Positions 36,797 through 51,735 of a stretch of DNA of 53,464 nucleotides are shown here, in pieces (position 1 is the stretch's first letter; each line of letters begins with the position of its first letter). Source of the DNA: Actinomycetota bacterium (lineage in GTDB: Bacteria; Actinomycetota; Acidimicrobiia; Acidimicrobiales; JAFATL01); contig JBEEFQ010000071.1 in NCBI GenBank assembly GCA_041166245.1, positions 1 to 53,464 on the forward strand, read 5' to 3'. The position numbers and the translations under genes are program-made. The notes beneath the pieces were generated by a model. The model was not told where the DNA came from. It did not search any database and saw only the letters and a list, made by a program, of their open reading frames with translations.

Positions 36797-38572
36797 GTGT
36801 TCGATGCCATCCCATGGCGCGGACGGGAAGGATGGGCAGTGACGTTGGAGCGACGGCGGGGGGGACGGAAATGGGTCCCGCTCGTTTCGGTGGCGGTGGC
36901 GTACGTGATGATCGCCACGCTGCTGCCCAACCCGCTGCGGATCCCGACCGACGAGGCGACCGCCACGGCGGAGTTCGCGCCCGTCGTCGGCAAGCGGACG
37001 AACCAGTCGGGCGGGAGTCTCTCCGAGACGGGCTTCGCCTCGAGCGAGGGGCTGGGCTCCGGCGGCGACGGACTCGGTGAGTTCGGCCTCGGCCTCGACA
37101 ACCCGCTGGCCCAGCTGCCCAGCCCTGTCAGCCGGCCCCGCCAGAAGACGTGTTACGGCGATCCCCCGCGCCAGGCAGAGGATCCGCTGTCCCCGCCATG
37201 TGTGGCGTTCTTCGAGGGTGACAACGGGGGCGCCACCTACCCGGGCGTCACCGGCGACAAGGTCACCGCGGTGATGTACGACGGCCTGTCGGACATCCCC
37301 GACGGCGAGGACATGTGCAAGCCCTACAGCGACGAGGACAGCCTCTCCACGCGCACGCTGAAGGCGATGCAGAACTACTTCCAGAAGCGCTACCAGACCT
37401 ACGGGCGTCGCGTCTGCATCGTCAAGCAGGCCGACTCGGGAGTCGAGGACGTCAATCGCAAGGGTGACGCCATCAAGACGGTGCAGGAGTACAACCCGTT
37501 CGCGGTCATGTCCTTCGCCGAGCCCAACGACGACGAGTACCTGAAGCAGATCTCGAAGCAGGGCGTCACCAGCTTCGGTCTGAACTTCTTCCAGCCCCAG
37601 TCGTACTACGAGCAGAACTCGCCCCTGGCCTTCTCCTTCTTCGACACGCGGGAGGAGCACGCGGAGATCACCGCTGCCTACATCTGCGAGAAGCTCATCA
37701 AGAACAAGGTCACCCACACCGACGACCCGACTCTCCGCGGCCAGACCCGCCGGGTCGGGCTCATCTACAACACTGGCGCGGAGTCGGCCGGCGGCGAGGA
37801 TATGGCCCCGGAGATCAAGCGGCGGGCCAAGCAGAAGTGCGGGTTCGAGTTCGCAGCCGAGTTCAAGTACCCCTACGACGCGACGACCTCCGGCGGCGCC
37901 GGCAACTCCCAGGCCATCGCCGACATGCGCAACAAGAACATCAACACCGTGTTCATGATGAGCTACGCCGACGCCATCCTCCTGGCCCAGCAGACGGCCA
38001 GCAACTCCGCCTACTTCCCCGAGTGGTTCGTCAACTCCACGTCGGTGCTCGACGTCGGCCCGGTGGCCCGCGTCTTCTCCGACCCCAGGCAGAAGACCTT
38101 CGGCGTGTCGCTCCGGTGGCGTACGCCGGGCATCAGGGAGACGTTCTGGTACCAGGCGTACCAGAGCGAGCAGCCCAACACGCTGGCCGAGGCCCGTTGG
38201 GGATTCAGCTGGTACTACCTGCTGCTCAACCTCTTCACCGCGGTGCAGGCCGCCGGGCCCAAGCTCACCCCGGACGCCATCGCCCGAGGCATGTTCACGT
38301 TCAAGACCGACCAGCTGGACAATCCCTACGTGCCGAGCGGGGAGTACGGCGAGCCCGCCGACTACGCGTTCGTGAGCTCGTACATGGAGTTCTTCTGGGA
38401 CCCGCGGGGAACGCCGCCGGACGGCAATCCCAGCGAAGGGTGCGTTCGCGTCACCAACGAAGGTCGCCGCTTCAGACCGGGCGGCGTCGGCAGTGACGAG
38501 AGCGGCTTGTTCAACCCGGCATCACCTTGTACCGCTGACATCCGCCTGCTCCAAGACGGAGTGGGCGCTTAA
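36797..38572 (+). CDS. membrane-anchored extracytoplasmic protein, possibly a type-I periplasmic-binding-protein (LivJ-like) fold
   Basis: N-terminal anchor KWVPLVSVAVAYVMIATLL. The about 500-aa ectodomain has alternating beta-alpha character. The start is GTG 36797 or GTG 36839 (after GGGAAGGA). The family call is tentative. Confidence 0.6.
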   Translation: MFDAIPWRGREGWAVTLERRRGGRKWVPLVSVAVAYVMIATLLPNPLRIPTDEATATAEFAPVVGKRTNQSGGSLSETGFASSEGLGSGGDGLGEFGLGLDNPLAQLPSPVSRPRQKTCYGDPPRQAEDPLSPPCVAFFEGDNGGATYPGVTGDKVTAVMYDGLSDIPDGEDMCKPYSDEDSLSTRTLKAMQNYFQKRYQTYGRRVCIVKQADSGVEDVNRKGDAIKTVQEYNPFAVMSFAEPNDDEYLKQISKQGVTSFGLNFFQPQSYYEQNSPLAFSFFDTREEHAEITAAYICEKLIKNKVTHTDDPTLRGQTRRVGLIYNTGAESAGGEDMAPEIKRRAKQKCGFEFAAEFKYPYDATTSGGAGNSQAIADMRNKNINTVFMMSYADAILLAQQTASNSAYFPEWFVNSTSVLDVGPVARVFSDPRQKTFGVSLRWRTPGIRETFWYQAYQSEQPNTLAEARWGFSWYYLLLNLFTAVQAAGPKLTPDAIARGMFTFKTDQLDNPYVPSGEYGEPADYAFVSSYMEFFWDPRGTPPDGNPSEGCVRVTNEGRRFRPGGVGSDESGLFNPASPCTADIRLLQDGVGA

Positions 38573-38586
38573 GCCCCGGAGGAATC

Positions 38587-39633
38587 GTGGCCACTCCTAC
38601 CAACAACCGTCTCAGGTCCAGAGGCCCGCGGCCGCCGCGCCGGGGGCCGAGCGGTATCGACCCGACCGAGTTCAGCCGCAACTTCGAAGCGGTCGTGAGC
38701 AACGTGATGGAGGTGATCCAGGGCAAGGAGGACGTCGTGCGCCTTGCCCTGGTGGCCATGCTGGCCGAGGGCCATGTGCTCTTCGAGGACGTGCCTGGCA
38801 CCGGCAAGACGGTCATGGCCCGGGCCCTGGCCCAGTCGATGAATGCCATCGCCCAGCGCATCCAGTGCACGCCCGACATGCTCCCCGGTGACATCACCGG
38901 TTCGTCGATCTACGACGCGAGCAAGGGCGAGTTCACCTACATGCCAGGGCCGGTGTTCGCCAATGTGCTCCTGTCCGACGAGATCAACCGAGCCACGCCG
39001 AAGACGCAGTCGGCCCTGCTCGAGGCCATGGCCGAGCGCAAGGTGACCGTGGACGGGACGACTCGTCTGCTGCCGCGCCCGTTCCTCGTGCTCGCCACCC
39101 AGAACCCGGTGGAGCAGGCGGGCACGTTCCCGCTTCCTGAAGCCCAGCTCGACCGCTTCCTGTTCAAGCTCTCGGTGGGCTACCCCGACCGCGACGCGGA
39201 GCAGCGGATCATGCTGAGCAACTCCCGCCAGCTCGCCATCGAGGACCTCGGCTCCGTGGTCGACACGCCGGTGATCTCGCAGATGATCGAGTTCGCGACC
39301 GACATCGAGGTCTCCGAGGCCGTCGGCTACTACATCGTCGACCTGGCCCAGGCGACGCGTGCCGACACCGCCCTCATCCTCGGTGCCTCGCCGCGGGCGC
39401 CCATCGCCCTGCTGCGCGCCGCCCGCGTGCTGGCTGCGAGTGACGGGCGCAACGACGTGTACCCCGACGACGTGCGTCACGTCCTCAAGCCGGTGATGGC
39501 CCACCGCCTGATCCTGGCGCCGGACGCCGTGCTGCGGGGCGAGACGGTGGACGCCGTCCTCGACCGCGTGCTCGGCCGCGTCAAGGCGCCGCTCATGGCC
39601 GACGTCACCGGCAAGTCACCCGCGGCCCGCTGA
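38587..39633 (+). CDS. MoxR-family AAA+ ATPase
   Basis: Walker A DVPGTGKTVMARAL, Walker B LLSDEINR, ATQNPVEQAGTFPLPEAQLDRF. GGAGGA SD. Confidence 0.92.
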   Translation: MATPTNNRLRSRGPRPPRRGPSGIDPTEFSRNFEAVVSNVMEVIQGKEDVVRLALVAMLAEGHVLFEDVPGTGKTVMARALAQSMNAIAQRIQCTPDMLPGDITGSSIYDASKGEFTYMPGPVFANVLLSDEINRATPKTQSALLEAMAERKVTVDGTTRLLPRPFLVLATQNPVEQAGTFPLPEAQLDRFLFKLSVGYPDRDAEQRIMLSNSRQLAIEDLGSVVDTPVISQMIEFATDIEVSEAVGYYIVDLAQATRADTALILGASPRAPIALLRAARVLAASDGRNDVYPDDVRHVLKPVMAHRLILAPDAVLRGETVDAVLDRVLGRVKAPLMADVTGKSPAAR

Positions 39634-39643
39634 ACCTCCACTG

Positions 39644-40930
39644 ATGCGCCGCCGTCTCCTCGAGCTCTCAGACCGGTTGCGGGCCAACCTGGCCCTGCGC
39701 CGGATCTCGTCCGTCATCCGGACGCTCGAGCGGCGTGCGGGCATCACCCGCACGGGCGAGGTCGGCATCGTGCTGGCGGTGCTGCTCTGGTTGATGGCGC
39801 GCGTGTTCGCCGGCGTCACGCTCTACCTCGTCGCCTACGGCGCGCTGCTGCTCATCGTCGTGTCGTGGCTCACCGTGCGCCGTCGCCTTCCGCTGGAAGG
39901 GGGGCGCACCGAGCTGCGGGCGCGCGCCCGAGTGGGCGAGGTGCTGACGGTCGGGCTGGAGCTCCGGGCCCGCCGCCGTCTGTCGACCATCGTCTTGGAG
40001 GAGGCGTTGCCGGAGAAGCTCGGGGATCCCGTGCGCCTGCCGATCGCCAGCATCGCGGGCGGTGAGGAGGTCACCCACGAGTACCGGTTGGCCTGCACGC
40101 GGCGCGGCGCCTACACGGTCGGTCCGCTCGTGGCGCGCTGGGGTGATCCGTTCGGGGTCTGCCAGCGGGAGATGGTGCTGGCCGAGCCCTTCGAGGTGCT
40201 GGTGCACCCGGCAATCGAGAACGTCAGCGACCGCCCGCTGACCCGGCAGTTCGAGGACCCGCCCATCCGCCCGCCCGTCTCGAAGCCCTGGCCTTCTGGG
40301 CTCGAGTTCTACGGCATGCGCGAGTACGTGCGGGGCGACGACCTGCGCCGCATCGTCTGGCGGGCGACGGCTCGCACCGGCAAGGTGATGGTGCGCGAGG
40401 CCGAACAGGGGATCACCGACCGCATCACCATCCTGGTCGACTCCGACCGCACGTACCACGGTCGGGAGACACCCTCAGAATCGTTCGAGGCCGCCATCAG
40501 GGCGGCGGCGTCGCTCGGCGTCAAGCATCTGGGCGAGGGCTACAGCGTCACGGTCGAGGCCAACGCGGGCCCGGTCACGCGGGCGCTGCGCGGCGCAGGC
40601 TCGCAGATCCGCATGCTCGACGCGCTCGCTCGGCTCGACATGGACCGTGAGCCGTTGACGTCGAACATCATGCGCCGCGTCTCCGACCCCCGGTCGGACG
40701 CCCACAACATCCTCATCACCCCCCGGCTCAAGCCGGCCGACGCCGCCCAGCTGCGCATGTTGTTGAACCGTGGCCTGTCGGTCCTCGTGATCGCCCTCAT
40801 GTGGGACGACGAGGCGAGCGAGACGCTGAACACGGCGGCCGCGCTGGGGTGCCAGGTCGTGGAGCTCCGGCCGGGCCAGAGCATCGCCGCCGCCATGTCG
40901 ATCGAAGTCGGAGCGGGACAGCGACTGTGA
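39644..40930 (+). CDS. DUF58 domain protein (vWA-like MoxR partner)
   Basis: Two N-terminal TM helices and the DUF58 signature YGMREYVRGDDLRRIVWRATARTGKVMVRE. Confidence 0.88.
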   Translation: MRRRLLELSDRLRANLALRRISSVIRTLERRAGITRTGEVGIVLAVLLWLMARVFAGVTLYLVAYGALLLIVVSWLTVRRRLPLEGGRTELRARARVGEVLTVGLELRARRRLSTIVLEEALPEKLGDPVRLPIASIAGGEEVTHEYRLACTRRGAYTVGPLVARWGDPFGVCQREMVLAEPFEVLVHPAIENVSDRPLTRQFEDPPIRPPVSKPWPSGLEFYGMREYVRGDDLRRIVWRATARTGKVMVREAEQGITDRITILVDSDRTYHGRETPSESFEAAIRAAASLGVKHLGEGYSVTVEANAGPVTRALRGAGSQIRMLDALARLDMDREPLTSNIMRRVSDPRSDAHNILITPRLKPADAAQLRMLLNRGLSVLVIALMWDDEASETLNTAAALGCQVVELRPGQSIAAAMSIEVGAGQRL

Positions 40931-40937
40931 GCCACCG

Positions 40938-43184
40938 GTGACGGCCACGCTCGATCCCACGACCGAAGAGGTCGTTGCCCCGCCTCGCGGGGTCGGCCCC
41001 GGTTCGGCGGGCGCGCCACCGCGAGGCACAACGGATGACGAAGACCTCGAGGAGATCGGGCCGGTCCTGCGGCCTGCCATCGCCGCCGCCCTGACCTCAG
41101 CGGCCGCGGGTGTGCTCGCGGGCGGCATGTTCGTCGGCGTCGCGCCGCGCGTGTGGGCCATCCTCGGCGCGGTCGTGGGCGTCGCCGCCGCGTGCTGGTT
41201 GGCCCGGCGGCGCGACATCACGCCGGTCAACCAGCTGGTCGCCGCGGGCATGGTGCTGGGTGCCGGCATCGTGGCCCTCGCCGTCTTCGACACGGGCAGC
41301 GTCGGCAGCCTGCCGAAGCTGGTCGGCGAGGCCGTCGCCAGCGGGAAGCTGCGCCAGCCCCCGGCCCCGTTCGAGCCGGGGTGGCGGCCGCTCATCGTCT
41401 GGGTGCTGGGCGCGGTGGGCTTCGGCGCGGCGTGGGTCGGCGTGGCCCTCCGCAAGCCAGGCCCGGCCATGCTCGTGCCCCTGCCCTTGGTGGCCTTCGC
41501 GGCAACGGGCCAGCCGGACTACGCGGCCGTGGCCAGCGGCGTGGTGGTGTTCGTGCTGTTCGCGGCCGCTCTGGCGGTGGTGTTCCGCGCCGACGGCGGC
41601 GACGGCGAGAAGATGCCGGTCAGCTTCGAGCTCAAGCGTGCGTTCCGGGCCGCGCCGCTGGCCGTCATCCTCATCGTGGGGCTCGTCGCCCTGAGCCAGA
41701 CCGACTTCTTGTTCCCGAAGCCGCTCTACGACCCGGCCGAGCAGGCGCAGAAGCCCAAGACAACGCCGCTGTCCGAGGTCGAGGACCGCATCCTGTTCAC
41801 CGTCGTCTCCAAGAACTACACGGGACCGTGGCGGCTGGGTGGCCTCGATGTCTACGACGGCAAGCAGTGGTTGCTGCCGCCCTTCGCAGAATCACGCCTT
41901 CTCGACCTCCCGCGCGACGGCATCATCGACAAGTCCCTGCCGCCGGGCGTGAAGACGTCGTTCACCGTCGAAGGCCTCGAAGGCACGGTGCTCCCGCTGC
42001 CGAACCGGACGCTGGGCCTGGTGTTCGTCGGACCCAAGCTGGTGGTCGACCCACGCACCGCCACCGTCAGGGTGTCGGCCGGACAGGTTCGGCGCTCGTT
42101 CAAGTACGACGTGGCCGCGGCCGCCCTTCCCACCATCGACCAGCTGCAGACCGCGTCGGTGACGCAGGACCCCAAGCTGCTCGAGTTCACCGACGCACCG
42201 CCGGTACCGGAGGCGGTCCGCAAGCTCTTCGCCGAGACGCCGGCGACGACCCCATGGGAGCGGCTCGACTTCGCGCGCAAGCGCCTCCTGGAGACGGTCA
42301 CGGCCGAGGGCGCTGGTCTTCCGTCTGAGGTCCCGCCCTCGAAGATCACGGACCTGCTCGAGGGATCGAAGAAGGGAACACCGTTCGAGATCGTGGCCGC
42401 CCAGGCCCTCATGGCCCGCTGGCTCGGTATCCCGTCGCGCATCGGGTTCGGCTTCGACGGCGGCGACCGCAAAGGCGACGTGCTGGAGGTCAGGCCGCTG
42501 CATGGCTCGTCGTGGCTCGAGGTGCACTTCGAGGGGCAGGGCTGGTTCCCCATCACCGGCGCGCCGAAGAAGGCCAAGCAGTCGCTCTCCAACAAGGACC
42601 CGCAGCGCCAGCAGGAGATCGTCCCGAGCGACGAGATCGGCGTGCTGGTCTTCGTGCCCCTGCGCACCGATCCGCCGAGCGTTCTGCGCGACGCGCTGCA
42701 GCGCTATGTCCTCATGGGCGTCATCGCCGTGCTGCTCGTCCTCCTGACGTACGCGCTCTGGCCGCTGCTGACCAAGGCGCGCCTGCGATCGAAGCGGCGA
42801 CGGTGGGCTGCGGATCATGGCCCACGAGCGCGTATCGCCAACGCCTACGCCGAGTTCCGGGACGCAGCGACCGACCTCGGTGTCGGTCATCCCGAGGACA
42901 CGCCGATGCGGTTCCTCAACCGTGTGGCCGAGGACGACGAGCACACCGAGCTGGCGTGGCTGGTGACCCGCACGATCTGGGGCGACATGCGGGAGAGCGC
43001 GGGCGAGGACGAGGTCCTCGTCGCCGAGGAGCTGAGCCGCAGCCTGCGGGCCCGTCTGGCCCGGGCCCAACCGGTGACGATCCGCATCCTCGCCGCGGTG
43101 TCGCGCCTGTCGCTGCGCTCGCCGTTCGCGCCCGAGTTGATCCGGGCCGCCCGAAGTCGAGGAGACCGCCGTGCCGCTGCATGA
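40938..43184 (+). CDS. transglutaminase-like domain membrane protein (TgpA-like)
   Basis: About 6 N-terminal TM helices, an extracytoplasmic region with a transglutaminase-core-like block (FEIVAAQALMARWLGIPSRIGFGF...HGSSWLEVHFEGQGWFP), and a C-terminal TM plus cytoplasmic tail. Confidence 0.8.
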   Translation: MTATLDPTTEEVVAPPRGVGPGSAGAPPRGTTDDEDLEEIGPVLRPAIAAALTSAAAGVLAGGMFVGVAPRVWAILGAVVGVAAACWLARRRDITPVNQLVAAGMVLGAGIVALAVFDTGSVGSLPKLVGEAVASGKLRQPPAPFEPGWRPLIVWVLGAVGFGAAWVGVALRKPGPAMLVPLPLVAFAATGQPDYAAVASGVVVFVLFAAALAVVFRADGGDGEKMPVSFELKRAFRAAPLAVILIVGLVALSQTDFLFPKPLYDPAEQAQKPKTTPLSEVEDRILFTVVSKNYTGPWRLGGLDVYDGKQWLLPPFAESRLLDLPRDGIIDKSLPPGVKTSFTVEGLEGTVLPLPNRTLGLVFVGPKLVVDPRTATVRVSAGQVRRSFKYDVAAAALPTIDQLQTASVTQDPKLLEFTDAPPVPEAVRKLFAETPATTPWERLDFARKRLLETVTAEGAGLPSEVPPSKITDLLEGSKKGTPFEIVAAQALMARWLGIPSRIGFGFDGGDRKGDVLEVRPLHGSSWLEVHFEGQGWFPITGAPKKAKQSLSNKDPQRQQEIVPSDEIGVLVFVPLRTDPPSVLRDALQRYVLMGVIAVLLVLLTYALWPLLTKARLRSKRRRWAADHGPRARIANAYAEFRDAATDLGVGHPEDTPMRFLNRVAEDDEHTELAWLVTRTIWGDMRESAGEDEVLVAEELSRSLRARLARAQPVTIRILAAVSRLSLRSPFAPELIRAARSRGDRRAAA

Positions 43185-44133
43185 CCGCCGCCGATCGGTG
43201 GTCGTGGCCGCCGTCCTCGTGGCTGCCGCGTCGCTCTCCGCGTGCGCCAAGCCCGAGAAGCCGGGCGTGGCGCTGAAGGAGGTCGGCGTCGACCTCGTCT
43301 ACGGCAAGAAGGTCGACGTCCAGCCGGGAGCAACGCAGGGTGGCGTCGTCGGTGGTGACGCCGTCGCCCCGGTGGGTGTCACCCCGGCCGAGACCGGGCT
43401 GGAGCCGACGCTGAGCCCTCGCTCGTCGGGCCGTCCCGGCGCGACGGCTGGCGCACCCGCGGCGGCGGCCGCCACAGGTCCGTGTCCCGACCCGGCTGAC
43501 GACGCCAGCGCGGGAGACCCCGCACCCCCGCGCATCGAGCGGCCGCCCGCCAACGGCGACTACTGGACGCGGTTCTCCGTGCCCGGAGGCGAGGCCCGCA
43601 CCGGCTACCGCAGGATCGACGCGGGGCGCGTCGCGCAGAACGGGACCTTCGAGTACAAGATCACCGAGCCCTTCAACGGCCAGAGTTACGCCTTCCGGGT
43701 GGACCCGAAGGACGGGATGTTCCTGACCCAGATCATCCTCGTGCGCAACGGCTCACCGGTCACCGTCCAGCCCCAGGTGCCGCTCGAGGTCGTGAACTTC
43801 CCGATCCTCGCCGGGGACCGCACAGGCGGCGAGGGGAACGTCGACTCGGTGAGCACCGACCCGTCACAGCGGACGTTGTTCGTCTATCACGGCAAGCCGC
43901 AGGGCAAGGAAGTGATCGCGGCGTGCAACCGGCTCGTCGAGACGTGGAAGTTCGCGTGGGACCTCGAGGTCACCATCGATGGCGCGACCCACCACGAGGT
44001 CGGCACCGTCAACCTCATGACGCAGTACGGGGGTTGGGCGGCGCGGTCCGAGCTGGAGGTCAGCGGCGCCTTCCGGCAGGCCAAGGAGACCATCAGCGCG
44101 TTGCGCCTCACACCCGGGAGAGTGCAGCAATGA
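43171..44133 (+). CDS. hypothetical lipoprotein
   Basis: GAGGAG SD 6 nt before GTG 43171. Lipobox AAASLSAC-AK. Overlaps the upstream gene by 14 nt. Confidence 0.65.
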   Translation: MPLHDRRRSVVVAAVLVAAASLSACAKPEKPGVALKEVGVDLVYGKKVDVQPGATQGGVVGGDAVAPVGVTPAETGLEPTLSPRSSGRPGATAGAPAAAAATGPCPDPADDASAGDPAPPRIERPPANGDYWTRFSVPGGEARTGYRRIDAGRVAQNGTFEYKITEPFNGQSYAFRVDPKDGMFLTQIILVRNGSPVTVQPQVPLEVVNFPILAGDRTGGEGNVDSVSTDPSQRTLFVYHGKPQGKEVIAACNRLVETWKFAWDLEVTIDGATHHEVGTVNLMTQYGGWAARSELEVSGAFRQAKETISALRLTPGRVQQ

Positions 44134-46286
44134 ACGCCACCGCCGAGCGTCGACGCGACCTCATTGGGGGCGCCGTCGCCACCGTTCTCGTGCTCGGGGC
44201 CGTGTTCCTCATGCCACGCGGGCTGGCGATCGGGGCCGTGTTCATCAACGGGCTGCTGGCCGGCCTGCTGTACGCCATCACGGCCGTCGGCATGATCCTG
44301 ATCTACCGCAGCTCCCGGGTGATCAACTTCGCCCAGATCTCCCTCGGCGGCGTCGGGTCCACCACCGCCTATTACCTCAACACGCGGTATGACGTCCCGT
44401 TCTTCCTCGCCGTGGCCGCGGGAATCGTCGTCGCCCCGGTGCTCGGTGGCCTGATCGACCTGCTGATCATGCAGCGGTTCACCAAGTCGCCCCGCCTCGT
44501 GGCCACCGTCGCCACCCTCGGGCTCGTGCCCCTGCTGGGCGAGCTCATCCGCCGGGTCATCGACTTCCTCGAGAAGGAGGATCTCGAGGGCCGCCAGAAT
44601 CTGCCGTTCAACTTCCCGTTCAAGGGCAGCAAGCTCGACATCAACGGCTTCGTGTTCGACGTGCGGCACCTGACGGTGCTGGTGCTGTGCAGTGTCGCCC
44701 TGATCGGACTGGCCGCGTTCCTGCGGCGCAGTCGACTCGGCATCGCCGTCCGAGGCGCGTCGGAGAACGCCGACCGGGCCGCGCTCCTCGGCGTGCCCGT
44801 GATGCTCGTCTCGGTCACCGTCTGGGCCATCGCCGCCACGCTCTCGACCATCGCGGCGACGACCGGCGGGGCCATCGGGCTGGTCGACCAACGGTCGATC
44901 TCGGTGGAGGCGCTCATGCCCGCCCTGGCCGCGGCCGTGCTGGCCCGCATGGTGAGCATGCCGTTGGCCGTGTTGGCCGGGCTCCTGATCGGCGTCCTCG
45001 ACCGCGGGCTGAGCTGGTCCTACGGCCAGAACCCCTACATCCAGCTCGTGCTCTTCGCGGTCATCATCGTGGGCCTCCTGCTGCAGCGAAAGCTCGTCAC
45101 GGGCGGCGAACAGGACGGCGCCAACACGTTCAGGGCGGCGCGCGAGGCCCGGCCCGTTCCGGCCGAGTTGCTGGCGATCTCCGGCGTGCGCCGGGCCCGA
45201 CAGGCGATGGTGGCGCTGACGGTGATCGCGGCCCTCGGGGTCCCGTGGCTCCTCGACGCTGGGCAGGTCAACCTCTCGTCGTTCACCGCCATCCTGGCCA
45301 TCATGACGGTCTCGCTGGTGATCCTCACCGGGTGGGCGGGACAGATCAGCCTCGGCCACTTCGCCATCGTGGCCGCCACCGGGTTCATCGGCGGGATCGC
45401 CACGACGACATGGGGTCTGTCGTTCTGGTTGGCCCTCCCGCTCGGGGCCGTCGCAGGGGCGCTCATCGCGTTCCTCATCGGTCTTCCTGCGCTGCGGGTC
45501 AAGGGCTTGTTCCTCGCTGTCTCCACGTTCGCCCTCTCCGTCGCCACCCCGCTGGTGCTCTTCGATGAGGATCTGCTCGGCCGTTACGCGCCGACCACTG
45601 TGGACCGGCCCAAGCTGCTGTTCATCGACTTCCAGCGCAGCGAGCGGGCGTACTACTACCTCACGCTCGCGTTCCTCGTCATGACCCTGCTCGTGGCTCA
45701 GGGGCTGCGCCGCAGCCGTACTGGCCGTGTGCTCATCGCCCTGCGCGACAACGAGTCCGGCACCCAGTCGTTCGGTGTCGACGTCATGCGGGCCCGCATC
45801 ACCGCCTTCATGATCTCAGGATTCTTCGCTGGCCTCGCCGGCGTGCTGTACGTCCACCACCAGTTCGGCGCGGTCGCCACGTCGTTCGAGCCGGAGCGCA
45901 GCGTGAACCTGTTCGTCGGCGTCGTGGTCGGCGGCATGGCGTCGCTCTCGGGCGGCGTGCTGGCGGCCATCTACTTCGGGGTGCTCATCGGGTATTTGCT
46001 GCCGCGCAACCTCGTCGGCCTGGCTCAGTCCATCAGCGTCATCGGGGTGCTCATCCTGTTCCCGGGTGGGCTCACCCAACTGCTGTACGGCGCGCGCGAT
46101 GCAGTGTTGCGCATCGTGGCGCTGCGCAACCGCGTGGTCGTCCCCAGCCTCTTCGGCGAGAGTGAGGTCGCGGACTGGGACGATCGCCGGGCACCCCTGG
46201 CTCCCACCGGCAGGGGCGGCCTGGCCACCCTCAGGCCCGGCCAGAAGTACAGACTCCCGTCGCGTTTGTGGGGGAGGCCGGTGTGA
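44130..46286 (+). CDS. fused LivH/LivM-type branched-chain-amino-acid-family ABC permease
   Basis: The N-terminal half is LivH-like (GLLYAITAVGMILIYRSSRVINFAQ). The C-terminal half is LivM-like (LTGWAGQISLGHFAIVA, GLPALRVKGLFLAVSTFAL). ATGA overlap with the upstream gene. Confidence 0.85.
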   Translation: MNATAERRRDLIGGAVATVLVLGAVFLMPRGLAIGAVFINGLLAGLLYAITAVGMILIYRSSRVINFAQISLGGVGSTTAYYLNTRYDVPFFLAVAAGIVVAPVLGGLIDLLIMQRFTKSPRLVATVATLGLVPLLGELIRRVIDFLEKEDLEGRQNLPFNFPFKGSKLDINGFVFDVRHLTVLVLCSVALIGLAAFLRRSRLGIAVRGASENADRAALLGVPVMLVSVTVWAIAATLSTIAATTGGAIGLVDQRSISVEALMPALAAAVLARMVSMPLAVLAGLLIGVLDRGLSWSYGQNPYIQLVLFAVIIVGLLLQRKLVTGGEQDGANTFRAAREARPVPAELLAISGVRRARQAMVALTVIAALGVPWLLDAGQVNLSSFTAILAIMTVSLVILTGWAGQISLGHFAIVAATGFIGGIATTTWGLSFWLALPLGAVAGALIAFLIGLPALRVKGLFLAVSTFALSVATPLVLFDEDLLGRYAPTTVDRPKLLFIDFQRSERAYYYLTLAFLVMTLLVAQGLRRSRTGRVLIALRDNESGTQSFGVDVMRARITAFMISGFFAGLAGVLYVHHQFGAVATSFEPERSVNLFVGVVVGGMASLSGGVLAAIYFGVLIGYLLPRNLVGLAQSISVIGVLILFPGGLTQLLYGARDAVLRIVALRNRVVVPSLFGESEVADWDDRRAPLAPTGRGGLATLRPGQKYRLPSRLWGRPV

Positions 46287-49234
46287 TCGAGATCACTCCC
46301 GACGTGACGCCTGAGGCCTCGTCTGTCCGCCGCTTCACCAAGAACCTCGACCTGCGAGGACTCGGCAAGTACGGCGCGGTGCCCATCCTCGTGCTGACCC
46401 TGTTCGCGGTCACCGACAACTTCGGCAACGCAGCCAGCAGCCTGCTGCTCAACGACGTGCAGCGCGAGTTCAAGATCAACCTGTCGTACCTGGTGCGCAT
46501 CAGCATCAACGTCGGTGCCGTCGCCGCGGTGCTGGCGGTGTTCTTCGGCTACATGGCCGACCGCTCCAATCGGGTGCGGCTGCTCGGCGTCGGCGTGGCG
46601 CTGACCGGCGTTTCCTACGTCCTCACCGCCGCCAGCCAGAGCAAAGGTCAATACGTCGGCGCCCAGCTGTTCAGCGCCCTGACCGTGATCCTCACCCCGG
46701 TGCTCTTCTCGCTCTTGGCCGACTGGTATCCACTCGAGCGACGAGGCCGCGTCTTCTCCTTCTACTTCATGGGCCAGGCCATCGGCGATCTGATCGCGCC
46801 GATCGCGGTCGGAGCCGCTGGGCTGAGCTTCGGATGGCGGGCACCCATGCTCTTCATGGTGGCGATCCCGACGCTGCTGCTGGTGCCCTTCACGTTGCTC
46901 CTGCGGAACCCGATCCGGGGCTACTGGGAGCGCATCGCGTCAACCGCCAACGAGGAGACGGCACTGAAGGAGGACGCCCCGCCGTCGCCCGGCGAGGCGT
47001 TCCGGACCTACTGGAGCACCCGCACATTGCGCCGCCTCTCCTACGCGCAGCCCTTCGCCCGCACGCGGTCGGCCCAGGGCGCGGCCTTGCTCCTCTTCTA
47101 CATCGTCGTGCACGGCCTCGACTCGTTCCGGCTCGGGATGCTCACGTCCCTCTACGCGGCGTTCTCCATCGTCGGCCTCTACGTCGGCGGTCGCATGGTC
47201 GACCGCTTCGCCCAGGTCAGCCCGGGCAAGATGATGATGCTCTCCGGCATCGGCAGCCTGATCAACGCCCTCTCGGTGCTCGTGATCGTCTTCGCTCCAC
47301 AGCTCTGGATGGTCGTCTTCTTCAACTGCGTTCTCGGCCTCGTGCTGGCGATCCCCGACGCCGCCGAGCAGGCCGTGGTGTCCTCCGTCATCCCACCCCG
47401 GGTGCGGGGCCTCGGGCTGTCGGCCTTCGGGCTGTGGGGCATCGGCGGGCTCTTCCTCATCCTCGCCACCCAGGCCGTCTCGGGCGACGTTGGCATCCGC
47501 GGCGCCGTCCTCTGCTTCGTGCCCATGCAGGCCATCGCCGCCATCATCCGCATGAGCGCGGCGTCATTCGTCGAGTTCGACCTGCGGGCGGCGCGTGCGA
47601 AGGCGATGGCGACCGCCGACTGGGCCGAGGCCAAGCGGCAGGGGCGGGACAAGCTGCTCGTGTGCCGCGACGTCGACGTGTACTACGGCAGCGTCCAGGT
47701 GCTGTTCGGTGTCGACTTCGAGGCCGAGGAGGGCGAGATCGTCGCCCTGCTCGGCACCAACGGCGCCGGCAAGTCGACGCTGCTGCGGGCCATCTCCGGC
47801 GTCACCGAGGCCACCAACGGCGCCATCCTCTTCGACGGCGACGACGTCACCCACATCCCCCCGCACGAGATCGCGGGCAAGGGTGTGGCCCAGACCCCCG
47901 GTGGGCGGGGCGTGTTCCCCGGGCTGACGGTGCGGGAGAACCTCGAGCTGGCCGGGTGGCTGCACCACGACATCGAGGACCGCCTCGAGGAGGTCTTCGG
48001 CCACTTCCCCGTGCTGCGCGAGCGACTCGACGAGACAGCGGGCAACCTCTCTGGCGGCCAGCAGCAGATGCTGACCCTGGCCCAGGCCTTCCTCACTCAG
48101 CCCAAGCTGCTCATGATCGACGAGCTGTCCCTGGGGCTGGCGCCCGCGGTCGTCGCCCAGCTGCTGGACATGCTGCGCGTCATCCACGCCGGTGGCACCA
48201 CGATCATCCTCGTGGAGCAGTCGGTCAACGTCGCCCTCTCCATCGCTCAGCGGGCCGTGTTCATGGAGAAGGGTGAGGTGCGCTTCACCGGGCCGACCGA
48301 GGAGCTCCTGGACCGCCCCGACATCCTGCGCTCGGTGTTCCTCAAAGGGGCTTCGGGCGGCGGGAGCGGCCGCGGCCGCGCCGTCGCGCCGCTGACGGCC
48401 AGCGCCGAGCGGGAGCGGGCCCGGCTCGCGGAGAGCGCCATCGTGCTCGAGGCGGTCGACCTCTCGAAGCGCTTCGGCGGGGTGTTGGCCGTCGACGACG
48501 TGAGCCTCGAGCTGCGCGAAGGCGAGGTGCTGGGCCTCATCGGGCCCAACGGCGCAGGGAAGTCGACGGTGCTCGGGCTCCTCTCCGGCTTCATCACCGC
48601 CGACGCCGGTCGCGTCGTGTTCGAGGGCCAGGACGTGTCCGACCTGAGCCCCGACGAGCGGGCCCGTCAGGGCCTGGTCCGCCGGTTCCAGGACGCGCTG
48701 CTGTTCCCGTCGCTCACCGTTTCCGAGACCCTGGCCGTGGCCCTCGAGCGCAGCATCGAGGTGCGCAGCCCCATCGCTCAGGCACTGCGGCTCCCGTCGG
48801 CGCGCATCTCCGAAGCCAAGGTGCTCCGGCGAGTCGAGACGCTGGTCGAACTGTTCGAGCTCGGCGGGTTCCGGGACAAGTTCGTCGGCGAGCTGTCCAC
48901 CGGCACGCGCCGCGTGCTCGACCTGGCGTGTGTCCTCGCCGTCGAGCCGCGCGTGCTGCTGCTCGACGAGCCGTCGTCCGGCCTGGCCCAGCGGGAGACC
49001 GAGGCCATGGGGCCGCTGATCCGACGCATCCGCTACGAGACGGGCGCGAGCATCGCCATCGTCGAGCACGACATGCCGCTCATCGCGTCGGTGTCCGACG
49101 AGCTGCTGGCCATGGACCTCGGACGGACGGTGCTGCGGGGCACGCCGGACGAGGTGTTGAACGACGAGCGGGTCGTCGCGTCGTACTTGGGAAGTTCAGG
49201 AGAGGCCATCGCCCGATCAGGAAGGGTCCGATGA
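46283..49234 (+). CDS. MFS-like 12-TM domain fused to two Liv-type ABC ATPase domains (LivF-like then LivG-like)
   Basis: About 440 aa of MFS-like TM helices (YMADRSNRVRLLGVG, ERRGRVFSFYFMGQAIG). NBD1 has GTNGAGKSTLL / LSGGQQQ / LLMIDE. NBD2 has GPNGAGKSTVL / LSTGTRR / LLLDEP. GTG 46283 makes a GTGA overlap; the track start is 46268. Confidence 0.85.
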   Translation: MIEITPDVTPEASSVRRFTKNLDLRGLGKYGAVPILVLTLFAVTDNFGNAASSLLLNDVQREFKINLSYLVRISINVGAVAAVLAVFFGYMADRSNRVRLLGVGVALTGVSYVLTAASQSKGQYVGAQLFSALTVILTPVLFSLLADWYPLERRGRVFSFYFMGQAIGDLIAPIAVGAAGLSFGWRAPMLFMVAIPTLLLVPFTLLLRNPIRGYWERIASTANEETALKEDAPPSPGEAFRTYWSTRTLRRLSYAQPFARTRSAQGAALLLFYIVVHGLDSFRLGMLTSLYAAFSIVGLYVGGRMVDRFAQVSPGKMMMLSGIGSLINALSVLVIVFAPQLWMVVFFNCVLGLVLAIPDAAEQAVVSSVIPPRVRGLGLSAFGLWGIGGLFLILATQAVSGDVGIRGAVLCFVPMQAIAAIIRMSAASFVEFDLRAARAKAMATADWAEAKRQGRDKLLVCRDVDVYYGSVQVLFGVDFEAEEGEIVALLGTNGAGKSTLLRAISGVTEATNGAILFDGDDVTHIPPHEIAGKGVAQTPGGRGVFPGLTVRENLELAGWLHHDIEDRLEEVFGHFPVLRERLDETAGNLSGGQQQMLTLAQAFLTQPKLLMIDELSLGLAPAVVAQLLDMLRVIHAGGTTIILVEQSVNVALSIAQRAVFMEKGEVRFTGPTEELLDRPDILRSVFLKGASGGGSGRGRAVAPLTASAERERARLAESAIVLEAVDLSKRFGGVLAVDDVSLELREGEVLGLIGPNGAGKSTVLGLLSGFITADAGRVVFEGQDVSDLSPDERARQGLVRRFQDALLFPSLTVSETLAVALERSIEVRSPIAQALRLPSARISEAKVLRRVETLVELFELGGFRDKFVGELSTGTRRVLDLACVLAVEPRVLLLDEPSSGLAQRETEAMGPLIRRIRYETGASIAIVEHDMPLIASVSDELLAMDLGRTVLRGTPDEVLNDERVVASYLGSSGEAIARSGRVR

Positions 49235-49725
49235 GACGAGCGTTGGTATTGCTGCTGGCGGCCGTTGCCCTGGTGGGCGCGGGCTGCAGTGAGGACAAGA
49301 AGGTGGGCAGCGACGAGCTGCTCCAATTCAACGAGTCGGCGACGACAACCGCGCCCGCGGCCGGTGCCGGCGGCCCGACAACCAGTGCGGTCGCGACGAC
49401 GGTCAAGGTGCAGGCAACGGCGCCGCCGACGACGAAGGCCAGCACGGCCCGCGCCGCGACGCCGGCAAGCACGGACTTCCAGCTGTCCATCACCGCCAAC
49501 GGCTTCGATCCCGACAACTTCGCGGTGAAGGTCGGGCAGCGGGTGGTCTTCACCAACAAGGACTCGGGCCGGGCCCACTCGTGGGTGGCGAACGACGGCA
49601 CGTGGGACTCCGGGCCGCTCCAGCCCGGGGAGCAGTTCGTCTACGTGGCCAACAAGCCGGGCGTGTTCGACTTCAAGGACGAAGAGGTGCCGTTCCTCAT
49701 CGGGCGCATGGAGGTGCGGGCGTGA
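49231..49725 (+). CDS. lipoprotein with cupredoxin-like domain
   Basis: Lipobox LVGAGC-SE, a Thr/Ala/Pro linker, then FDPDNFAVKVGQRVVFTNKDSGRAHSWV...PGVFDF (cupredoxin-like strands). ATGA overlap. Confidence 0.65.
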   Translation: MRRALVLLLAAVALVGAGCSEDKKVGSDELLQFNESATTTAPAAGAGGPTTSAVATTVKVQATAPPTTKASTARAATPASTDFQLSITANGFDPDNFAVKVGQRVVFTNKDSGRAHSWVANDGTWDSGPLQPGEQFVYVANKPGVFDFKDEEVPFLIGRMEVRA

Positions 49726-50263: not shown

Positions 50264-51247
50264 ATGCGCCGCCGTTCCGTCATCATCTTCGTGGCTCTGC
50301 TGGCCACCGGCGCGGCCCTGGCCGGCGCGGTGGGGCCGGCCGGCGCCGCCAACCCGTCGCGCATCGAGCTGAAGCCCGACGAGAACGACAAGGCGCCCGG
50401 CCCCAAGGGGACGACCAAGACCACCGGCGGTCCCATGATCGGCCCTGGCGCGGCCGGGGGCGCAGCCCTGGGCGAGGACGCCGCCACCGCGACCTGTGCG
50501 AAGGAGGCCTCGACCCCGGCCTGCGACGTGACGACGGTCTTGTTCGCACCCAGCAACCTGCCGGCCGGTCGCAGCTTCTGGGACGAGCGCTCCGGCACGC
50601 TGCGGGTGCGCATCGACTGGCAGGACGCGTCGGGCAGCGCCGACCTCGACATGTACGTGTTCCGCAAGGCCTACCCGGGGGAGGTGGACGAGGAGGGCGC
50701 GCCGGTCGAGGGTGACGTGTTCGTCATCAGCAGCGCCAAGGACAACACCGAGCTGGGCCAGCCCGGGCCGGCCAAGTGGGAGGAGCTGAACGTCCCCGAG
50801 CCGGTGCCCAACGAGTACTACGTGTACGTCGTCTCCTTCAATGGCCAGGTCCCGCAGTTCACCGGTGTGGTCGAGCTGACCACCGGCGTGGTGCGCACCT
50901 TCGACCGGACGGCCATCACGGCCAGGACCCGAACGCCGACCAAGTCGGCCGACGGCAGCCCGGCCGCCAGCCCGCTCGGAGGCGCCAGCGAGCGCGACTT
51001 CATCACCGTCACGCCGACCGGGGTGGTCATCCGCACCGACATCGGCCGTGACGCGGCCCAGGCCAACCCCGATTCCATCTTCATCGGCAAGGCGGAGTCG
51101 CTCCGGCTGCGAGGGGCGAGCACCCGCCGGGCGCCCGAGCCGGACACGACGGTGTCCACCATCCTGGCCGTCGTGATCGCGTTGCTGCTCGTCGGCGGTG
51201 CCACCTTCTTCGGACTGCGCCGCTACCGGCGCCAGGCGACGGTATGA
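50264..51247 (+). CDS. secreted protein with PPC-like domain and C-terminal TM anchor
   Basis: Signal peptide MRRRSVIIFVALLATGAALAGAVGPAGA. DLDMYVF...EYYVYVVSF is PPC-like. C-terminal VSTILAVVIALLLVGGATFFGLRRYRRQ. Confidence 0.65.
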   Translation: MRRRSVIIFVALLATGAALAGAVGPAGAANPSRIELKPDENDKAPGPKGTTKTTGGPMIGPGAAGGAALGEDAATATCAKEASTPACDVTTVLFAPSNLPAGRSFWDERSGTLRVRIDWQDASGSADLDMYVFRKAYPGEVDEEGAPVEGDVFVISSAKDNTELGQPGPAKWEELNVPEPVPNEYYVYVVSFNGQVPQFTGVVELTTGVVRTFDRTAITARTRTPTKSADGSPAASPLGGASERDFITVTPTGVVIRTDIGRDAAQANPDSIFIGKAESLRLRGASTRRAPEPDTTVSTILAVVIALLLVGGATFFGLRRYRRQATV

Positions 51248-51735
51248 GGCGCCTCCTCGCCGTCGCCGCCGTCCTCGCAGTTGTTGTGGGGCTCTCGGGT
51301 TGCTCGTACCTGCGCCAAGACGATGAGCAGTTCGTCCTCGACATCACCATCGAGCAGATCGGCAACAAGGTGATCTTCTCGCCGTCGAAGTTCGTGGTGA
51401 ACCACCACTACGGCCGCGTCAACCTGCTCAACAACACGAGCCAGCGGCGGGGCTTCGCCATCGACGACCTGGCCGAGTACCAGGACGTGGCAAGGCGGAA
51501 GGTGAAGACCTTCGAGCTCTACGAGATGAAGAAAGGCCGGACCTACGTCTTCTACGAGTCGACGACCGAGGGCGGGGCCAAGGGCAGTATCAAGTTCGAC
51601 CCCGACGCCGAGCAGCGCCAGCGCGCCCTCGACCCGCCCCACCGACCGGGGCCGATACCGGCGGGGCCGGCTGGCGCGGAGGGTCCACCGGCAGGCGCGA
51701 ACTTGCCCGCGACGACGACCACGTCGACGCCCTGA
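51244..51735 (+). CDS. hypothetical lipoprotein (cupredoxin-like core, Pro-rich tail)
   Basis: ATGA overlap. Lipobox VVGLSGC-SY. The FSPSKFVVNHHYGRVNLLNN...GRTYVFY strand pattern is cupredoxin-like. Confidence 0.6.
   Translation: MRRLLAVAAVLAVVVGLSGCSYLRQDDEQFVLDITIEQIGNKVIFSPSKFVVNHHYGRVNLLNNTSQRRGFAIDDLAEYQDVARRKVKTFELYEMKKGRTYVFYESTTEGGAKGSIKFDPDAEQRQRALDPPHRPGPIPAGPAGAEGPPAGANLPATTTTSTP

Follow-up and report, generated by a model that had tools for sequence, protein, structure and literature searches.

The window analysed here, a stretch of 53,464 nucleotides from an Acidimicrobiales (Actinomycetota) genome (assembly GCA_041166245.1, contig JBEEFQ010000071.1), carries at 46283..49234 on the forward strand one real, conserved gene that encodes a complete membrane domain of the major facilitator superfamily (MFS) together with both ATPases, LivF and LivG, of a Liv-type ATP-binding cassette (ABC) importer. 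Textbooks keep ABC transporters and MFS carriers, the two largest superfamilies of transporters, apart as machines that draw on different energy sources; in this gene, a full MFS carrier is permanently joined to an ABC importer motor, and the union is kept by selection. The fusion can be found at five or more copies per genome and is spread in a large group of soil actinobacteria. Communication between its two halves would amount to a new principle by which transport is coupled or regulated; even without it, the fusion would be a natural 1:1 pairing of two transporters in which, for example, import is tied to export. It also offers a handle on Liv-type importers; for the fused LivH-LivM permease (LivHM) encoded directly upstream, a sequence search of the PDB found no related solved structure (no match at E values up to 0.01).

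A single chain with a carrier and two ATPase domains

The gene lies in a stop-free frame of 988 codons (46268..49234, forward strand, as are all features of the window described below), and residue numbers of the fusion protein are counted from 46268 rather than from the start codon. Translation likely begins at the GTG at 46283, which has a GGAGG ribosome-binding site (46273-46277) 5 nt before it and forms the tetranucleotide GTGA with the TGA stop of the preceding LivHM gene. The resulting product of 983 amino acids (aa) has the length of the database protein for this window. Across the junction of the membrane and ATPase parts (47500-47700), the DNA contains neither an N nor a homopolymer run. 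A first-pass annotation of this DNA had described a single polypeptide in which an MFS-like domain is followed, without stops, by two nucleotide-binding domains (NBDs), and both the open frame and the assignments by Pfam and NCBIfam bear this description out.

The MFS domain comprises aa 31-430 (46358..47557) with 12 transmembrane (TM) helices. Pfam MFS_1 matches the fusion protein with an E value of 6.7e-30 and 104.6 bits against a cut-off of 33.4, so that the N-terminal portion of about 430 aa scores as a true MFS domain; the same model matched all 16 family members scanned. A prediction of topology and structure, which the first-pass annotation had proposed as a check, was carried out with AlphaFold2 (AF2) on an alignment of 50 family members and yielded a single-chain model with a mean pLDDT (predicted local distance difference test) of 88.8 and a pTM (predicted template modelling score) of 0.76. 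The modelled order is 12 TM helices, a helix at aa 417-457 that leads into the first strand of NBD1, and the two NBDs. The MFS helices fall into two sets (aa 38-210 and 266-430) separated by a structured cytoplasmic loop (aa 211-265), mostly with pLDDT above 90, and a hydropathy scan agrees with the twelve-helix topology. In Foldseek searches, no PDB chain covered more than 40% of the fusion model (TMq at most 0.40), and the best matches were the tandem-NBD chains of Mycobacterium tuberculosis DppABCD and OppABCD (8wdb_D, 8j5q_D; TMt 0.59-0.71). The arrangement of the two modelled NBDs resembles that in the DppD/OppD chains (TMt 0.70).

Motif A (G-x-x-x-D-R-x-x-R), which lies in the TM2-TM3 loop and governs the MFS conformational switch, is complete in the window protein (G94, D98, R99, R102). 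Across the family, D98 and R99 are retained in 49 of 50 sequences and R102 in all 50, and the counterpart of the motif in the second half of the domain is likewise kept. Further positions invariant among the 50 members are D152 and R159 in the TM4-5 loop, which reads LLAD152-WYP...R159 in the window protein, R217 and G218 after TM6, E243, R246, R255 and R256 in the central loop, P376, R378 and R380 in the TM10-11 loop, and D438 in the linker that follows the domain.

TM12 is predicted to be prolonged into the cytoplasm as one continuous helix (aa 417-457, 47516..47638), after which the first strand of NBD1 sets in at residue 462. In the AF2 model, a single rigid helix thus joins the MFS domain to LivF. 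The linker proper, between the MFS domain and this strand (aa 431-462, 47558-47653), is identical at all 32 positions to an orthologue of 84% overall identity, although the synonymous divergence (dS) in this segment is 0.86, and at 30 of 32 positions to a second orthologue of 60% identity, which makes it the most constrained segment between orthologues. Among paralogues, its column identity is only moderate (0.46), and relatives in which LivF and LivG are joined without an MFS domain lack the segment altogether.

NBD1 (aa 463-695, 47654..48352) is LivF/UrtE-like, with Walker A GTNGAGKST, the signature LSGGQQQ and Walker B LLMIDE; its H-loop position reads VEQS (Gln651), and its best match among PDB sequences is 1ji0. 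It is followed by a variable, disordered inter-NBD linker (aa 696-724, 48353..48439) of low pLDDT (below 50 at aa 692-709) and a family column identity of 0.20. NBD2 (aa 725-988, 48440..49231) is LivG/UrtD-like, with Walker A GPNGAGKST, Q-loop residue Q808, the signature LSTGTRR (aa 876-882, 48893-48913), Walker B LLLLDE and an H-loop EH934D. It ends in a BCA_ABC_TP_C motif (26.9 against a Pfam cut-off of 25.5) and matches 1g6h and 1g9x, the LivG protein MJ1267, in the PDB. Walker A and B, Q-loop and signature motifs are present in both domains. Pfam ABC_tran covers two stretches (E 1.8e-62), and NCBIfam assigns aa 466-680 to UrtE/LivF models and aa 725-976 to LivG/UrtD models, in line with the earlier claim of a LivF-like and then a LivG-like domain in the same frame. 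The score on the UrtE model (321 against a cut-off of 286) sums two NBD stretches and is no evidence for urea as a substrate.

The two orthologues, which lie on contigs of two different soil metagenomes, were compared as the first-pass annotation had advised, and the fusion is intact in both. Relative to the 84% orthologue, the ratio of nonsynonymous to synonymous substitution rates (dN/dS) is 0.18 for the MFS domain, 0.07 for NBD1 and 0.17 for NBD2; it rises to 0.46 in the inter-NBD linker and to about 0.9 over the first 30 residues. All of these are rough values, as dS of 0.6-0.9 is partly saturated in a genome of 70% G+C. By these ratios, the MFS domain is maintained by purifying selection.

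The importer and its additional membrane module

The permease gene upstream (44130..46286) encodes 718 aa with two BPD_transp_2 domains (Pfam, E 3.7e-61), which NCBIfam assigns as a LivH/UrtB and a LivM/UrtC half; the proposal that LivH and LivM are themselves fused in the preceding gene is thereby upheld. The stop codon of this gene and the start codon of the fusion gene overlap, and a LivHM gene neighbours every paralogue and every orthologue.

At the head of the operon, a gene at 36797..38572 encodes a protein of 591 aa with a divergent LivJ-like type-1 fold and no Pfam match of its own. On both orthologous contigs, the genes for this binding protein, a MoxR protein, a DUF58 protein, a TgpA-like transglutaminase, a protein of 314-315 aa, LivHM and MFS-LivF-LivG follow one another in this sequence, as they do in the window, and it is this conserved operon membership that makes the 591-aa protein the probable cognate partner of the permease. 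According to its AF2 model, whose pLDDT averages 69, exceeds 80 over most of aa 150-410 and falls off beyond them, it begins with a membrane helix (aa 30-41) followed by about 75 disordered, Gly/Ser-rich residues. It carries a conserved Cys...PPC...NGG block, and its type-1 fold is about 100 aa larger than that of LivJ. This genome holds 14 homologues; paralogues adjoin the paralogous operons, and two of four match Peripla_BP_6 at an E value of 3e-5. A profile of 13 sequences matches the Leu/Ile/Val-binding protein 4n0q (E 9.4e-5), and Foldseek relates the structured part of the model to periplasmic-binding-protein type-1/Liv-type proteins (E about 1e-14, TM score 0.62-0.73). By the descriptions of these matches, the ligands of Liv-type proteins with a similar fold are amino acids, aromatic acids or fatty acids. 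An Rfam scan of the whole window for a riboswitch, as a clue to the substrate, gave no match. Since a LivJ-like binding protein is present, the system is best described as a binding-protein-dependent importer.

In a tree of LivF domains, restricted to this genome and rooted at the midpoint, all fused forms fall into one clade (support 94/81), and LivF-LivG and LivHM-LivF-LivG forms without an MFS domain are nested among the forms that have one. These MFS-less sister systems share the fused LivHM, an LSTGxRR signature and the large binding-protein family. Because they use the same types of permease and binding protein, the MFS domain is an add-on, and the view that it is an extra membrane module rather than the transmembrane domain (TMD) of the ABC transporter is vindicated by systems from the same genome. 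Furthermore, each locus has exactly one LivHM and one LivF-LivG pair, and the motors must therefore serve LivHM.

The sister systems also bear on the signature motif of NBD2, which the first-pass annotation had regarded as deviant and as a hint of asymmetric ATP sites. LSTGTRR is indeed present and retains the Ser and the second Gly of LSGGQ. Its deviance, however, is not special to the fusion, as LSTGxRR is near-invariant throughout the fusion clade and equally present in the MFS-less LivF-LivG and LivHM-LivF-LivG relatives; the idea of a degenerate ATP site tied to the MFS domain was consequently rejected. Other LivG signatures in this genome read LSYGT, LSFGT and LSTGM, and its LivF-type NBDs generally have Gln (VEQS or VEQN) rather than His at the H-loop position. 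The site composed of the LivF Walker motifs and the LivG signature is non-canonical on both sides, because the LivF H-loop carries Gln and the LivG signature begins with LSTG. ATP-site asymmetry is hence plausible, as a trait of the Liv heterodimer rather than of the fusion.

The source genome, a metagenome-assembled genome of 4.1 Mb in 339 contigs (87% complete), contains three further full-length fusions (contigs C269, C142 and C129) and one ended by a contig edge (C169), each encoded directly 3' of a fused LivHM gene on the same strand. On two other contigs the modules are redistributed, with separate LivG, LivHM and MFS-LivF genes on C251 and MFS-LivF next to LivHM-LivG on C270. In every arrangement, the MFS domain is covalently N-terminal to LivF, and it is never joined to LivG. 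Identities among paralogues amount to about 30-45% for the MFS domain, 24-29% for the binding protein and 55-65% for the NBDs. Apart from these loci, LivH, LivM, LivF and LivG share one frame, a putative chain of about 1250 aa that would comprise an entire ABC importer, at C100:2601-6452, C243:9740-14605 and C69:12678-16589, all on the reverse strand. The fusion protein matches 121 NBD-containing places in the genome, many of them Liv-type pairs, which suggests an unusually large expansion of Liv-like importers in this organism.

Beyond this genome, an exhaustive search with the MFS part alone retrieved 2400 cluster representatives at E values up to 0.001 and 89 at up to 1e-30. About 164 proteins, i. 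e. the best 150 of the 2400 representatives (of 50%-identity clusters) and earlier matches, were scored for their architecture: 57 were MFS-LivF-LivG, about 38 MFS-LivF and the rest MFS only, many of these being fragments. Within the same order, matches spanning MFS and LivF were found in 19 of 40 genomes, with up to 7 per genome. In an even sample of the phylum, the MFS domain occurred in 30 of 401 genomes, nearly always in frames of at least 990 aa and concentrated in few families (10/10 genomes in one, 7/21 in another). Among the Chloroflexota sampled, three of 251 genomes gave a match, and among the Pseudomonadota sampled none of 251. Named records with the fusion belong to metagenome-assembled genomes of Actinomycetota or Acidimicrobiales. 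A search for related loci in species genomes picked up the NBD motifs, and 76 of its 80 loci were ordinary LivF/LivG genes; only four (L005-L008) were full-length fusions.

Two seemingly larger architectures were discarded. Very long open frames in the genomes of the order and the phylum had suggested single chains of 1700-1850 aa from LivHM through MFS-LivF-LivG. At the three loci inspected (L087-L089), LivHM occupies a different, overlapping frame, and the long frames are artefacts of high G+C content. An apparent LivM-MFS fusion among the 50%-cluster representatives (P0166) has out-of-frame, Arg/Pro-rich stretches and is probably a frameshift artefact.

Database entries label the fusion as 'MFS transporter' or 'branched-chain amino acid transport ATP-binding protein', and such automatic labels conceal its fused design. 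Full-text literature searching found no paper on an MFS-ABC or MFS-Liv fusion, and a text search of one comparative-genomic study (PMC3924187) turned up other MFS fusions, such as a sensor kinase-MFS fusion, without this one among them. The rarity that the first-pass annotation had attributed to the design is hence true of the literature searched, but not of nature, as genomes of this order often carry the fusion, and do so in several copies.

Possible interplay of carrier and importer

The fusion protein is best read as the ATPase subunit of a Liv-type (HAAT-like) ABC importer that depends on a binding protein, with LivF and LivG in tandem. These motors would dock on the fused LivH-LivM encoded just upstream, and the membrane-anchored LivJ-like protein would deliver the substrate. 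ABC motors act on membrane domains via coupling helices that are docked in grooves of the NBDs. With these grooves presumably occupied by LivH and LivM, ATP would not drive the MFS domain directly, and the latter may provide a second, proton-coupled translocation pathway of exporter or antiporter type, present 1:1 in the importer complex. Conceivably, the state of the MFS domain is signalled to LivF, or that of LivF to the MFS domain, through the TM12-linker helix. The most likely of the readings considered, at about even odds, is that the MFS domain is a working proton-coupled carrier kept in this 1:1 complex, with allosteric cross-talk with LivF as a possibility.

The proposed type of carrier is suggested by the relatives of the MFS domain. 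In a search of the PDB with the MFS family profile, the closest match was the bacterial Spinster homologue HnSpns (6e8j, E 5.6e-37), followed by DgoT of the ACS family (6e9n, 3e-28, full length), human SPNS1 (3.7e-23) and then VMAT, EmrB and NorA; human SPNS2 matched at 1e-14. The likeness to Spinster carriers exists at the level of the family profile, and the single-sequence match is weak (E 2.8e-4). A table in PMC3924187 gives the Spinster family as TC 2.A.1.49. In TM5, the 50 family members follow a pattern GxxxGPxx[A/G]G, with G173 in 38 of them, G or A at position 177 in 28 and 13, P178 in 36, A or G at position 181 in 24 and 7, and G182 in 42. This resembles motif C of MFS carriers of the drug:H+ antiporter type (DHA1/DHA2), which reads G-x3-G-P-x2-G-G in the same helix. 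Together, the profile relatives and the TM5 pattern hint at a Spinster/DHA-like carrier of exporter or antiporter type.

Several points weigh against a working carrier in such a complex. TM5 of the window protein itself (GDLIAPIAVG) matches motif C only in part, and motif C is tied to antiport by generalisation. The membrane core of the MFS domain is variable among the paralogues and the 50 members, which would fit divergent substrates and a purely structural role equally well. The argument from selection shares the roughness of the dN/dS values given above, and contacts of the MFS domain with LivHM or the NBDs are putative, the model being one of a single chain.

An alternative that is unlikely but deserves attention is that the MFS domain is a non-transporting accessory domain, similar to TMD0 of ABCC proteins or to a transceptor, which anchors, assembles or regulates the importer. 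Such a domain could, for example, sense a ligand or the state of the membrane and tune the LivF ATPase through the rigid helix. It would also agree with the MFS domain being optional within the clade, with conservation sitting in the cytoplasmic loops and the linker rather than in the membrane core, and with the linker being more constrained between orthologues than any other segment. Yet, the invariance of motif A (in 49-50 of 50 sequences), the preservation of its second-half counterpart and the dN/dS of 0.18 over the whole MFS domain speak for more than an accessory role, and a mere anchor would not need a 12-helix carrier fold kept in hundreds of lineages.

Other possibilities assign a mechanical role to the linker. 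That the TM12-LivF helix couples both machines into one allosteric unit, in which ATP gates or drives the MFS domain or the MFS domain gates the ATPase, appears rather improbable. Quite improbable, too, is the specific case of a hybrid primary/secondary transporter, in which closure and opening of the LivF-LivG dimer would be transmitted by this helix, so that ATP gates or drives the rocker-switch of the MFS domain. The predicted uninterrupted helix from TM12 to the first strand of NBD1, the identity of the linker between orthologues (32/32 at a dS of 0.86) and the exclusive attachment of the MFS domain to LivF, never LivG, are what such a transporter might display. However, every locus supplies LivH and LivM for both grooves and no other NBD genes, which means that the motors are already engaged; one tether to one NBD would be a weak lever, and the linker is conserved only moderately among paralogues (column identity 0.46).

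The MFS domain could also belong to the same import route, as a low-affinity bypass for the importer substrate or as a docking or hand-over partner of the binding protein. Low identities of MFS domains and binding proteins among paralogues, next to higher ones of the NBDs, would fit two components that both track substrate specificity. This option is nonetheless very improbable: the MFS-less sisters use the same binding-protein family, no such binding protein is encoded near the MFS-LivF loci of C251 and C270, and the periplasmic loops of the MFS domain are short and not notably conserved. Finally, an assembly chimera, frameshift artefact or decaying pseudogene, which the fragmented, metagenome-assembled source (339 contigs, 87% complete) might bring to mind, can practically be dismissed because the same uninterrupted fusion recurs in two assemblies of independent origin, in four or more paralogues of this genome and in dozens of other genomes, with purifying selection on every domain and a junction within a confidently modelled helix.

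Neighbouring genes and comparison with known systems

Directly upstream of LivHM, a gene at 43171..44133 encodes a lipoprotein of 320 aa that matches no family and is translationally coupled to LivHM through an overlap of stop and start codons (ATGA). Both orthologous contigs hold a gene for 314-315 aa at this position. The lipoprotein may be an exported accessory component. Between the binding-protein and permease genes (38587-43184) lie genes for a MoxR AAA+ ATPase, a DUF58 protein and a TgpA-like membrane transglutaminase. This triad is co-directional with tiny gaps and has the same order on the contigs of the 84% and 60% orthologues (L086 and L085, respectively). Downstream of the fusion gene, and translationally coupled to it, two small lipoproteins are encoded at 49231-49725 and 51244-51735, with weak similarity to Cupredoxin_1 (E 7.8e-6 and 4e-3, neither reaching the Pfam cut-off). 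Several other loci of the clade, with or without an MFS domain, harbor 3' of the ATPase gene a gene for a secreted protein of about 300-330 aa with an N-terminal WW...PPGGLY and a C-terminal membrane anchor (C142:10434-11417 and C129:17721-18635 on the forward strand, C169:4373-5644 on the reverse strand, also on C69 and C243). At the window locus, unrelated lipoproteins occupy this place.

Among characterized transporters, the closest parallels are LivJ/K-LivHMGF of E. coli and UrtABCDE, members of the HAAT family of ABC importers (TC 3.A.1.4). Both share with the window system the pair of LivF and LivG NBDs, BPD_transp_2-type LivH and LivM, a LivJ-like type-1 binding protein and the BCA_ABC_TP_C tail. 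In contrast to them, LivH is here fused to LivM and LivF to LivG, a whole MFS domain precedes LivF, and MoxR-DUF58-TgpA genes are found within the operon. Moreover, the binding protein exceeds theirs by about 200 aa, has a membrane anchor and has diverged too far for Pfam to recognize it. Two NBDs on one chain in a binding-protein-dependent importer are also known from the Dpp and Opp systems of Mycobacterium tuberculosis, but these chains belong to another family of ABC importers and have no membrane domain. The Spinster carriers (HnSpns, SPNS1 and SPNS2) and DgoT have 12 TM helices and motif A like the MFS domain described here; unlike it, they are free-standing, with no ABC ATPase fused to them or known to act together with them.

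With regard to its layout, the fusion recalls the ABCC proteins MRP1 and SUR1, in which an N-terminal membrane domain, TMD0, is attached to the ABC core via a conserved linker, L0. Related ABC proteins manage without TMD0, just as the sister systems in this genome manage without the MFS domain. Yet, TMD0 is a bundle of five helices without a transporter fold and is placed ahead of a TMD, whereas in the window protein a full carrier fold is attached directly to an NBD.

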